Shown here in pieces: positions 61,631 through 64,000 of a stretch of DNA of 64,000 nucleotides. The stretch is from assembly GCA_963823555.1 (NCBI GenBank), contig CAWGMA010000001.1, forward strand, positions 576,001-640,000. The letters run 5' to 3'. The DNA comes from Candidatus Eiseniibacteriota bacterium (GTDB lineage Bacteria > Eisenbacteria > RBG-16-71-46 > CAVPCR01). Position 1 is the first letter of the stretch, and every line of letters begins with the position of its first letter. The notes beneath the pieces are model-generated. The model searched no databases. It saw only the letters and a list, made by a program, of their open reading frames with translations, and was not told the DNA's origin. The position numbers were made by a program, and so were the translations under genes.

Positions 61631-61684
61631 GCGCCAGGGTTCGTGCCCGGGTCAGAGACTGGTCTCTCACAGGGGGTAAACGGA

Positions 61685-62149
61685 ATGGCGGCTCGTAAGA
61701 AGGCCACGCGCAAGAAGGCCACGCGCAAGAAGGCCACGCGCAAGAAGGTTACGCGCAAGGCTGTGCGCAAGAAGGCAGTGCGCCGGAAGGTTGCGCGCAA
61801 GGCTGTGCGCAAGAAGGCAGTGCGTCGGAAGGTTGCGCGCAAGGCTGTGCGCAAGAAGGCCACCCGCAAGAAGGTTGCGCGCAAGGCTGTGCGCAAGAAG
61901 GCCACCCGGAAGGCAGTGCGCCGGAAGGTTGCGCGCAAGGCTGTGCGCAAGAAGGCCACCCGGAAGGCAGTGCGCCGGAAGGTTGCGCGCAAGGCTGTGC
62001 GCAAGAAGGCCACCCGGAAGGCAGTGCGCCGGAAGGTTGCCCGCAAGGCAATCGCCAAGAAGGCCACGCGCAAGAAGGCCACGCGCAAGAAGGCCACTCG
62101 CAAGAAGAAGGAACTGGCAGCCGAGCTTCCTTCGATCTTCACCATGTAG
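61685..62149 (+). CDS. Histone H1/Hc2-like basic repetitive DNA-binding protein
   Basis: 154 aa, over half K/R, built from KKATR/KAVR/RKVAR units including ~3x 54-nt tandem repeats. Confidence 0.8.
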   Translation: MAARKKATRKKATRKKATRKKVTRKAVRKKAVRRKVARKAVRKKAVRRKVARKAVRKKATRKKVARKAVRKKATRKAVRRKVARKAVRKKATRKAVRRKVARKAVRKKATRKAVRRKVARKAIAKKATRKKATRKKATRKKKELAAELPSIFTM

Positions 62150-62283: not shown

Positions 62284-62838
62284 TCAGCGGCTGGTCTCTG
62301 TCGTGTCGTCCTCGGCACCATGGAAACGCAGGCCGAAGGCGATGTAGTCGAAGTCGTACTCGCTCGGCAGCGTGTAGCGGGCTTCGGTGTAGAGGTCGAC
62401 TTTGCTCCCATGGATGAGGCGTGCTCCGACGAATGCATGCCACTTGAGAGCACCCCGGGAGTCCGTGAGGACATCGCCGAAGTCGCCGAGGCTGCTCCAG
62501 GAGCCGACAACGTGAGCGCCAGGGCCGGTAGCCAGCCATGGGCTGAAGGCCCCGCCTTCGAAACCAGGGATGACGAAGCGCAGCAGCAGATAGGTGGACA
62601 ACGCCACGTTTGCCACATTGTCGCGGTAGGCGAAGTGGCCCTCGACGCGCGCGGGAAAGTCGAGATGGTAGCTGGGCGGGACGTTCCTGATCGGCAGGGC
62701 GACTTCGTACCCGCCCATAACCTCCCAGTCATAGAACCCCCGAGTGGCGGCCCCGGCGGCGAGCACATCGGCTGAGGCGGGCGAGGCGCCGGCGAGACCG
62801 ATGGCGAGCCCCACCAGGGTGATCGACCTGCGGAACAT
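62284..62838 (-). CDS. Small outer-membrane beta-barrel-like protein
   Basis: Signal peptide (ASA|D); amphipathic strands 'SPWLATGPG', 'LYTEARY', 'IAFGLRF'. Confidence 0.65.
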   Translation of the reverse strand: MFRRSITLVGLAIGLAGASPASADVLAAGAATRGFYDWEVMGGYEVALPIRNVPPSYHLDFPARVEGHFAYRDNVANVALSTYLLLRFVIPGFEGGAFSPWLATGPGAHVVGSWSSLGDFGDVLTDSRGALKWHAFVGARLIHGSKVDLYTEARYTLPSEYDFDYIAFGLRFHGAEDDTTETSR

Positions 62839-62872
62839 GGGGCCGCGCTTTTCACGCCGCCCGGTCATCATC

Positions 62873-63430
62873 TCAGTCGACACGGAGATCGCCCTCGCTC
62901 TCGAGGTCTCCCGCGAGGAAGTAGGCCCGATAGCTCCCCGGCGGCACGCCATCGAGCAGCCAGGGGACGTTCACTTCTCGATCCACTTCGGCAGCGTAGT
63001 TCTCGAGGAGGCGGGCCACGATGAGACCGCGGTCGTTGACGATCGCGAGGTTGACGCTCGGCCGACGCACGTCGAGACGGAACGTGATGACGATTTCTCT
63101 CGTCCCCGGGGGGGCCGGGTTCGGACAGGCGCTGATGGCGAGTCCGGCGGGGGGCGGTACGGCGGAGGCACCCCTTTCGGGTCCTTCTTCAGGAGAGGAC
63201 CTGCCGAGGGGACCCGCACACGGGGCCGGCCAGGCGTTTTCCCGGTCGTAGGAAAAGAAGGGACCTGGGTCGACGAGAGTCACGTCCTCATCGCATCCCG
63301 CGATCATGAGAAGCGTGCAGAGGGTCGCGGTGAGGAGGACCAGGGCCGGCCATCGGGGGGCGGAAACACGCGCCTGTCGATCCGCCAGAGGCGACTCGTC
63401 ACCACAGCGGTATCGCGTGGTCGATGTCAA
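62873..63430 (-). CDS. Lipoprotein with a FlgD-Ig/CTD-like domain
   Basis: TTG after GAGGAG; lipobox IAG-C; 'ACPNPA..ITFRL..LAIVNDRGLIVARL..W..PGSYRAYF'. Confidence 0.6.
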   Translation of the reverse strand: MTSTTRYRCGDESPLADRQARVSAPRWPALVLLTATLCTLLMIAGCDEDVTLVDPGPFFSYDRENAWPAPCAGPLGRSSPEEGPERGASAVPPPAGLAISACPNPAPPGTREIVITFRLDVRRPSVNLAIVNDRGLIVARLLENYAAEVDREVNVPWLLDGVPPGSYRAYFLAGDLESEGDLRVD

Positions 63431-63552
63431 AGCGCACTCCTCGTGGGGGAAGGACGCTAGGTCGTCGGCGCGGGGAGCTGACCACGAGCGGTAGGCAAGC
63501 GGGAACGTGACCAAGATGCGCTCGTCTAGCCCAGCGAGAACGGCGTTTCCAC

Positions 63553-63685
63553 AAAGAAAGTTCCCCGCCGAACATCGTTCTTTACGCCGGGGAGCACCCC
63601 TAACCTCGATGTCTTGCGACTCGTAACTTAGGTTGGGCGTCGGACGCGTAAATCTCAAATGCGGCAGGGAACTCCGCTTCGCTGA
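63553..63685 (-). ncRNA. Unassigned structured RNA (~115-nt rod hairpin with GCAA tetraloop and U-rich tail)
   Basis: Nested helices 63662-73/63559-70, 63646-52/63581-87, 63630-40/63596-606 and GUC-GCAA-GAC at 63611-20; promoter directly upstream. Confidence 0.6.
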
Positions 63686-63691
63686 TCTCTC

Positions 63692-63720
63692 AAGCTAGCA
63701 GAGCCCCCAGGGGGCGTCAA
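63692..63720 (-). promoter_or_regulatory. sigma70-type promoter for the structured RNA/lipoprotein unit
   Basis: Minus strand TTGACG-17nt-TAGCTT with TG extension. Confidence 0.65.
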
Positions 63721-63952: not shown

Positions 63953-64000
63953 ATGGATCTCTTCGAAACCGAACCTGAGTTGCCGGGCGATGCCCGCCCA
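63953..64000 (+). CDS. 5' end of a gene cut by the window edge, possibly RarA/MgsA
   Basis: MDLFETEPELPGDARP resembles the 'MDLF...PLA' N-termini of RarA; only 16 codons visible. Confidence 0.35.
   Translation, partial: MDLFETEPELPGDARP

Follow-up and report, generated by a model that had tools for sequence, protein, structure and literature searches.

Gene Context, Fold, and Promoter of the RNA Locus

Close to the end of the window, a term used here for the entire 64-kb stretch of DNA analyzed, the minus strand encodes a short 6S-like RNA of about 132 nt (63552..63683, minus strand), delimited by its fold (z −3.28), by family models, and by a 6S model of the clade. The start of the RNA was predicted at 63686-63683, and the locus is situated between rarA/galE and histone-like/response-regulator genes. 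On the upstream side, the divergent rarA/mgsA gene begins (63953..64000, plus strand) and leaves the window (ORF L001:7954-9363; MgsA_C, E 1.4e-64). On the downstream side, a predicted lipoprotein gene (62873..63433, minus strand; an ORF without Pfam match at E 0.1) is followed by an OMP-like gene (62284-62952, minus strand; also without Pfam match), both labels having been read off the sequence with no library hit behind them. Beyond these two genes, a convergent histone-like gene and then a response-regulator gene are located. The histone-like gene (61643-62149, plus strand), which lies downstream of a two-component cluster, encodes a Lys/Arg-rich repetitive protein with a weak HC2 match (E 0.003) and is conserved beside the RNA locus across the class. 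The lipoprotein and OMP-like pair (62284-63433, minus strand) is also conserved; some families carry it behind the RNA, and others lack it.

Folding of the minus strand yielded an irregular rod of −55.2 kcal/mol at the z-score given above, and none of 200 shuffled sequences was as stable, whereas the plus strand of the same locus reached a z-score of −1.09, with 31 of 200 shuffles being as good. The first-pass annotation of this DNA, which had proposed a structure acting at the RNA level on the minus strand, is supported by this difference, and all sequence features listed in it, including the U-rich tail, were found in place on that strand. Its estimate of ~115 nt has to be corrected, because the conserved RNA extends from AGCGAAGCGG (63683) to about 63552.

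At its 5′ end, the RNA features a conserved leader, AGCGAAGC (63676..63683, minus strand), which is partly paired with the U-rich tail and mostly paired according to base-pair probabilities; it is near-invariant among the first 12 homologs and more variable in other families. The leader is followed by the 5′ strand of the terminal (closing) helix with the core GUUCCCUGCC (63662..63675, minus strand), which is common to 6S RNA in the model alignments, and the 3′ strand with the core GCGGGGAAC (63557..63570, minus strand) was deduced from the fold as well as from the family and 6S models. Within this helix, AGUUCCCUGCCG (63673-63662) pairs with CGGCGGGGAACU (63570-63559). Further inward, the middle-helix strand UUUACGC (63646..63652, minus strand) pairs with GCGUAAA (63587-63581) in the predicted fold, and the pairing ACGCCCAACCU/AGGUUAGGGGU is likewise present on the minus strand. 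The strand GACGCCC(AAC) (63635..63641, minus strand), whose register was taken from the family model alignment, pairs with 63600-63592, and this helix probably corresponds to the bubble-closing helix GAGCC(AAC) of 6S RNA. In place of the 6S central bubble and apical arm, there is an apex of about 35 nt (63601..63634, minus strand), which is mostly paired according to base-pair probabilities and capped by GUC-GCAA-GAC (63620-63611), in agreement with the earlier statement that this copy contains no large open bubble. The GNRA loop described for the cap is indeed present here, and a GAAA loop occurs in a genome of the same genus, but it is not a family-wide feature. The U-rich 3′ tail (63552..63559, minus strand), which is pyrimidine-rich in the homologs, likely marks the 3′ end; a terminator scan of the locus gave no hits and thus no classical terminator.

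Upstream of the RNA, a sigma70-type promoter is represented by the −35 hexamer TTGACG (63715..63720, minus strand), which is kept in genome G001 where the spacer changes, and, 17 nt past it, by the extended −10 element TG-c-TAGCTT (63692..63700, minus strand; hexamer 63697-63692, TG 63700-63699). A TA at matching spacing was also found upstream of the short RNAs in homologs. The proposal that the RNA possesses its own promoter stands as far as the hexamers, the 17-nt spacer, and the conservation in the family are concerned; a strict promoter scan, however, left it below threshold, the −10 hexamer fitting the consensus at only 3 of 6 positions. The promoter was accepted because of its conservation in the family and not on the basis of the strict scan. 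Of 51 family loci, 50 contain TTGAC in the 60 nt preceding the RNA, compared to 4.5% of background windows, even though the promoter lies outside the covariance models described below.

An attenuating leader of the lipoprotein and OMP-like genes had also been considered in the first-pass annotation. Such genes follow the RNA on the same strand in 20 of the 51 loci, representing several families, and no terminator was called in between, so that read-through is possible. However, convergent genes follow directly in 17 loci, where the neighbor is a response-regulator gene, mostly accompanied by a histone-like gene, and where no lipoprotein/OMP operon exists; ten loci lie in unrelated contexts, and four are cut by contig ends. 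Moreover, the fold ends about 120 nt ahead of the first likely start codon. Because the downstream context differs across the 51 loci, the RNA is considered to stand alone, and a cis-acting leader or attenuator is regarded as very improbable. In family f16, a second conserved hairpin was observed just 3′ of the RNA (L021:1618-1663 and the matching place in L022), which is possibly the terminator of the convergent gene.

Distribution and Covariation of the RNA Family

A blastn search over 61 genomes yielded matches in seven of them, representing the RNA's own genome, five true homologs, and one chance hit. Applying a 17-nt pattern to all 206 genomes of the class gave matches in 40 genomes, and among the 30 loci listed, 12 were recognized as true members on inspection. 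The covariance model R2, built from nine of these first members with the window RNA left out, matched 72 of 151 genomes and scored the window RNA with 49.7 bits. The broader model R3, built from 51 matches including the window RNA and excluding any 6S RNA, assigned 63.8 bits to the window RNA and, with 23 candidates scored per genome, matched 87 of the 151 sampled genomes of the class at up to three places each. At the same number of candidates, its recovery was patchy by family, with 19/59 in f10 and 0/7 in f8. The designation as an orphan has to be abandoned in view of this distribution and of the paralogs residing in the RNA's own genome.

The phylum was sampled by one single class, and named records with high-scoring members are titled Ca. 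Eisenbacteria. A pattern scan outside the class returned at least 121 stretches, of which 26 scored above 49 bits and were labeled as Eisenbacteria (21), 'uncultured bacterium' (3), or another phylum (2), the latter two occupying the same contig places as class members. The remaining stretches stayed below 30 bits, a level that is forced by the pattern itself, and in one other phylum, 100 additional genomes contained no family match. A scan of viral sequences resulted in 34 matches, the best of which (34.6 bits) was read as part of a phage coding sequence with a different fold and was rejected.

The members measured are between 119 and 151 nt long. When 37 members were aligned by fitting them to the model, 85.9% of the cells pair, and both-side changes occur at 28 of the 40 pairs in this structure-fitted alignment. 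The covariation score of 0.350, compared to 0.176 for shuffled and at most 0.152 for slid alignments, exceeds the value of each of the 500 shuffles and of every slid control, being somewhat overstated because the alignment was fitted to the structure. In the terminal helix, 8 of the 13 pairs are invariant among the 37 homologs; the sequences of the middle helices differ across the family, with covariation; and the bubble-closing-type helix containing the GACGCCC strand features both-side changes at five of six pairs, with its CC/GG pairs kept in 34 and 37 of 37 members. An alignment-free arm-swap test (n = 35) was partly supportive, and this on average only: own arms reached −23.4 kcal/mol versus −17.6 kcal/mol for cross pairs, and the own arm was the best partner in 7 of the 35 cases. 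With RNAalifold applied to MAFFT alignments, hardly anything except the terminal helix was recovered, owing to misalignment of the middle stems. A two-hairpin alternative fold of the apex is possible in nine sequences and is not established family-wide. The apical motif GCGGG occurs in most members and is degraded in the window RNA's own clade.

A DNA-level repeat, a palindrome, or a chance structure could be suspected, given that the ends form an inverted repeat and that the antisense strand also folds better than shuffles on average (mean z −2.1). However, the sense fold was better in 42 of the 51 loci (mean z −3.8), a U-G pair is conserved in 37 of 37 members, the promoter is oriented in 50 of 51 loci, and synteny is conserved. 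A multi-copy repeat, also considered earlier, was not observed, the window RNA being single-copy in its 4.6-Mb genome according to blastn. An explanation of this kind is already largely excluded. The element is a real, conserved RNA gene, from which a discrete RNA is probably transcribed.

Homology to 6S RNA

For the window as a whole and for a 700-nt region of it, the Rfam comparison suggested in the first-pass annotation yielded no family above the cut-off, and the window RNA had no RF00013 match either at the gathering cut-off (46.4 bits) or at E up to 10. Among 19 loci of other members, none exceeded the cut-off, the best value (26 bits) being obtained for one paralog of type C. An HMM derived from the 6S alignment did not find the window RNA in its genome, whether the arm columns were included or left out, and gave no score for 7 of the first 12 homologs, the window RNA among these.

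The relationship became apparent with R1, a covariance model built from 23 normal 6S RNAs of the class only. This model recognized each of the 12 first homologs from end to end on the right strand with 12.4-31.4 bits, the best of 14 non-member loci reaching 12.6 bits; the E-values of the covariance models are rough. In two of the R1 alignments, 74 model positions representing the apical arm are replaced by 6-7 nt, and the closing stem is kept along with the 5′ bubble strand and the 3′ bubble hairpin. Within the 64-kb window, the window RNA was the top match (20.1 bits; next 13.4), with only the terminal ~24 and ~26 positions aligned. Several divergent short-RNA members were missed by R1 at E 0.05, and a genome-wide R1 search, in which 150 of 2874 candidates were scored and the window RNA was absent from the matches, was uninformative. 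In the reciprocal direction, R3 recognized 18 of the 24 normal 6S RNAs over their whole length (12.4-26.6 bits), the top alignments carrying an 84-nt insertion at the apex. All 21 R3 matches at E ≤ 0.3 in the 95 kb searched fell on 6S RNAs or short paralogs, and no unrelated DNA scored; a reciprocal search with R2 matched no 6S RNA. The suggestion of a reduced 6S-like RNA is supported by these reciprocal matches with the normal 6S RNAs of the clade.

Regarding architecture, the duplex arms measure 32-35 and 33-36 nt in the short RNAs versus 35-39 and 33-40 nt in 6S RNA, whereas the stretch between the bubble-closing strands comprises 28-35 nt in 35 type A homologs versus 94-111 nt in the 23 normal 6S RNAs. 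On visual inspection, the members have the terminal UUCCCUGCC/GGCGGGGAA stem in common with the 6S RNA of the clade, often also a CGUGA/CACG helix, and, in one family, UUGAGCC...AGGUU. In the R3 alignment, the GCGGG motif falls at the base of the apical arm of 6S RNA. The terminal-stem motif was not found in this genome's SRP RNA or tmRNA. Joint significance of the inner 6S motifs was reached by 13 of the 35 type A homologs and by none of the 3 sequences from the window RNA's own clade. Where 6S RNA has its large single-stranded central bubble, most type A members feature a weakly paired, pyrimidine-rich apex, and the apex of the window RNA is predicted to be mostly paired.

Taken together, the window RNA is very probably homologous to 6S RNA, and a retained ability to bind RNA polymerase is less probable than the homology. 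On present evidence, the window RNA would descend from 6S RNA and work like it.

The usual 6S locus lies after zapA and before ymdB/ygfA-type genes, and in this genome, with the neighbor names recognized from translations, this place holds a normal 6S RNA (G000:C1:1385085-1385273; 88 bits with Rfam). A clear normal 6S RNA was also identified in 11 of the 12 first genomes, nine of them over the Rfam cut-off and two by R1. Because of this co-occurrence, the short RNA is regarded as an addition and not as a replacement. It resembles 6S/SsrS RNA (RF00013) in the terminal stem sequence, in the CGUGA/CACG helix of many short members, in the rod fold, in duplex length, and in having the bubble-closing helix and the 5′ bubble strand in register. 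Differences are that the short RNAs are about 125-132 nt long, lack the apical (−35-like) arm, and feature a conserved 5′ leader, and that the window RNA is encoded at another locus, lies below the Rfam cut-off, and exists in addition to the normal 6S RNA. As noted in the first-pass annotation, it is shorter than typical 6S RNA, the canonical length being described as about 180-200 nt (PMC11077062, PMC8876501). The window RNA is not to be filed as a canonical 6S RNA, since it fails in RF00013 score, length, apical arm, and locus.

Other small RNAs were also compared. The small SRP RNA (RF00169) is similar in size and rod shape, and an SRP54-type gene is the divergent neighbor in one short-RNA family (f9, scanned for L086), a normal SRP RNA being located elsewhere in 5 of 5 f9 genomes examined. 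The window RNA differs in having neither the helix-8 motif nor an Rfam match (RF00169, RF01854), and a normal SRP RNA is present elsewhere in its own genome, which confirms the earlier rejection of an SRP assignment. Concerning a bacterial Y RNA, the Ro60/Rsr gene (TROVE, PF05731) was not found in the RNA's own genome, which is 92.5% complete.

Paralogs in the Genome

Searching the RNA's own genome for the paired terminal motif returned exactly three places, all of them short RNAs; the filter demanded a leading G, which left out the normal 6S RNA. The second paralog (type B; G000:C1:925015-925165) is located behind the sigma70-type promoter TTGACA-17-TAGCTT and carries the apex GCGGACGUGCC. 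The third (type C; G000:C1:1496404-1496522, L249) belongs to a group of RNAs of about 100-120 nt that also includes L253, L255, L256, L258, L261-L263, L066, and L067 and that features the most 6S-like closing stem, with up to 33.7 bits in R1. The sigma54 consensus GGCA-N6-TTGC was used for the type C promoters; a motif of this type was detected upstream in 8 of the 10 members examined and TTGAC in none of the 10, the sigma54-type figure being a raw count. The type B locus (L120, L248) is convergent with a lipid A acyltransferase gene and was also observed in G001 and G004, and in other families, type B is located near UDP-glucose dehydrogenase and FAA hydrolase genes. Further short rods possessing the same terminal stem and other apex sequences (L252, L254, L257, and L118, together with L260, L268, and L269) suggest more than three paralog types. 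The ybbR gene adjoins the rods L252 and L118.

The apical motif differs by paralog type (GCGGGY, GCGGACGUGCC, and GGGCUGAUCC). That each type combines its own apical motif with its own promoter class would be expected of separate regulators, and it could be argued that the members are trans-acting sRNAs on a 6S-derived or merely 6S-like rod, the apical motif, mostly GCGGG, pairing with target RNAs or binding an unrelated protein. However, GCGGG may have been inherited, given its alignment to the base of the 6S apical arm, it is degraded in the clade of the window RNA itself, and the 5′ leader is mostly paired. A trans-acting sRNA is accordingly deemed quite unlikely, though less remote than the leader discussed above.

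Proposed Function of the Short RNAs

This analysis established the gene with its promoter motif and fold, the family to which it belongs, the 6S homology, and the missing arm, and the functional proposal builds upon them. 6S RNA has been described to mimic an open promoter, the apical arm being −35-like and the 3′ bubble strand −10-like, and the helix beside the bubble to contact the beta and beta′ subunits; synthesis of the product RNA unwinds this helix and frees the enzyme (PMC8876501). Engineered B. subtilis 6S-1 RNA without the −35 region is reported in the same source to bind in vitro about 10-fold more weakly, to make product RNA, and to be released (PMC8876501). By analogy with this arm-less 6S-1 RNA, a decoy function appears to be the most likely one for the short RNAs. 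We therefore favor, with moderate confidence, the reading that the window RNA is a promoter-bearing 6S paralog of ~132 nt without the −35-mimicking arm, acting as a likely weaker, possibly sigma-relaxed decoy of RNA polymerase.

If the window RNA is transcribed as a discrete molecule, the polymerase would grip its ~35-bp closing duplex as downstream DNA and treat the apex as an opened promoter. A short product RNA with the predicted start GUUGG would be copied from the strand after GCCC and would unzip the inner helix, by which the enzyme would be released. The predicted product RNA of the genome's normal 6S RNA also begins with GUUGG, and in a constrained refold with the template strand blocked, the freed 3′ strand was predicted to form a small hairpin. 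Without the −35 arm, the contact to sigma70 region 4.2 would be lost and the affinity lowered, and holoenzymes carrying other sigma factors might be bound. Region 4.2 of sigma70 is reportedly required for 6S RNA binding in E. coli, and a relaxed sigma specificity would be expected for this reason.

The terminal stem complicates this proposal, being dispensable for polymerase binding in E. coli 6S RNA (PMC8876501), so that the terminal-only R1 alignment of the window RNA counts against a decoy. The short RNAs could instead be 6S descendants that do not bind RNA polymerase and in which the terminal stem serves as a handle for another factor acting on 6S RNA, such as a nuclease or an RNA-binding protein, which would be titrated or recruited. 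The dispensability of this stem would fit such a role, as would its being the best-conserved and most 6S-like part of the RNA, where the eight pairs invariant in 37 members, rather than covarying, may point to recognition by a protein; inner 6S motifs are weak and absent in the window RNA's clade. On the other hand, the whole length of the closing duplex and the bubble-closing helix are kept in the 6S register, and the 5′ bubble strand can be aligned with its 6S counterpart, neither of which would be needed for a terminal handle alone. A shared handle is considered unlikely, yet it ranks above the trans-acting sRNA.

Extending the decoy proposal to all paralogs, Eisenbacteria might possess a panel of natural arm-less 6S RNAs of at least three types serving as decoys for different polymerase forms, since the arm that ties 6S RNA to sigma70 region 4.2 has been lost, and this would represent an RNA-based control of sigma-factor competition. 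We regard this extension as tentative and rather doubtful. The same reserve applies to its details, according to which each type would have its own apex and promoter class, one of them sigma54-driven, and would target alternative-sigma holoenzymes or the core enzyme. The RNA's own genome contains 20 matches to sigma70-family region 2.

Comparison with Known 6S-Type RNAs

B. subtilis 6S-2 RNA is a full-length molecule with both arms. It is similar in being a paralog beside the main 6S RNA, B. subtilis having been described to carry two 6S paralogs (PMC8876501), and it differs in that an Eisenbacteria genome may contain as many as three paralogs without the arm, one type being located behind a sigma54-type promoter. 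The engineered RNAs 6S78 and 6S82cp also lack the −35 region and are described to bind the sigmaA holoenzyme, to template product RNA, and to be released (PMC8876501). They were made in the laboratory, measure 78-82 nt, and have both arms shortened, whereas the closing stem is complete in the natural RNA. The short RNAs resemble a naturally occurring form of the arm-less 6S-1 construct. Ms1 and CoRP of Actinobacteria are likewise structured and distinct from canonical 6S RNA, Ms1 being described to bind the core enzyme and CoRP the core and the holoenzyme (PMC11077062), whereas binding is only predicted here. Homology of the short RNAs points to 6S RNA itself, and Rfam scans, by which Ms1 and CoRP were compared, gave no match.

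6S RNA is described, and searched for, as a conserved two-armed RNA of ~180 nt (PMC11077062). The known additional 6S-type RNAs comprise second copies of full length, such as B. subtilis 6S-2, as well as Ms1 and CoRP, which are separate RNAs (PMC11077062). In the passages of PMC4227106 covered here, a doubtful Aquificales assembly is reported to contain two 6S candidates, and short forms are not mentioned. A search of open-access main texts turned up no account of arm-less 6S paralogs occurring in nature or of Eisenbacteria ncRNAs. By analogy, the short RNAs are likely to supplement the normal 6S RNA as additional, weaker decoys of RNA polymerase. A natural family that occurs across the sampled Eisenbacteria, drops the −35 arm, and escapes Rfam implies that similar RNAs may be missed elsewhere. 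Its members provide natural variants for asking whether a 6S-type RNA can target non-housekeeping holoenzymes and why the sequence of the 6S terminal stem is conserved despite being dispensable for polymerase binding in E. coli. In addition, the presence of a sigma54-type promoter in one type of paralog suggests that sigma54 signaling and polymerase sequestration are directly linked.

Full-length relatives were encountered as well. In the genomes G082, G046, G050, and G084, full-length 6S RNAs (L272-L275) were detected with 74-88 bits by the clade model; two of the four genomes were also searched with Rfam RF00013, which gave no match. Divergent full-length 6S-like RNAs were also observed at L065:651-835 (G007) and L064:673-847 (G004), the copy in G007 being present in addition to a normal 6S RNA.
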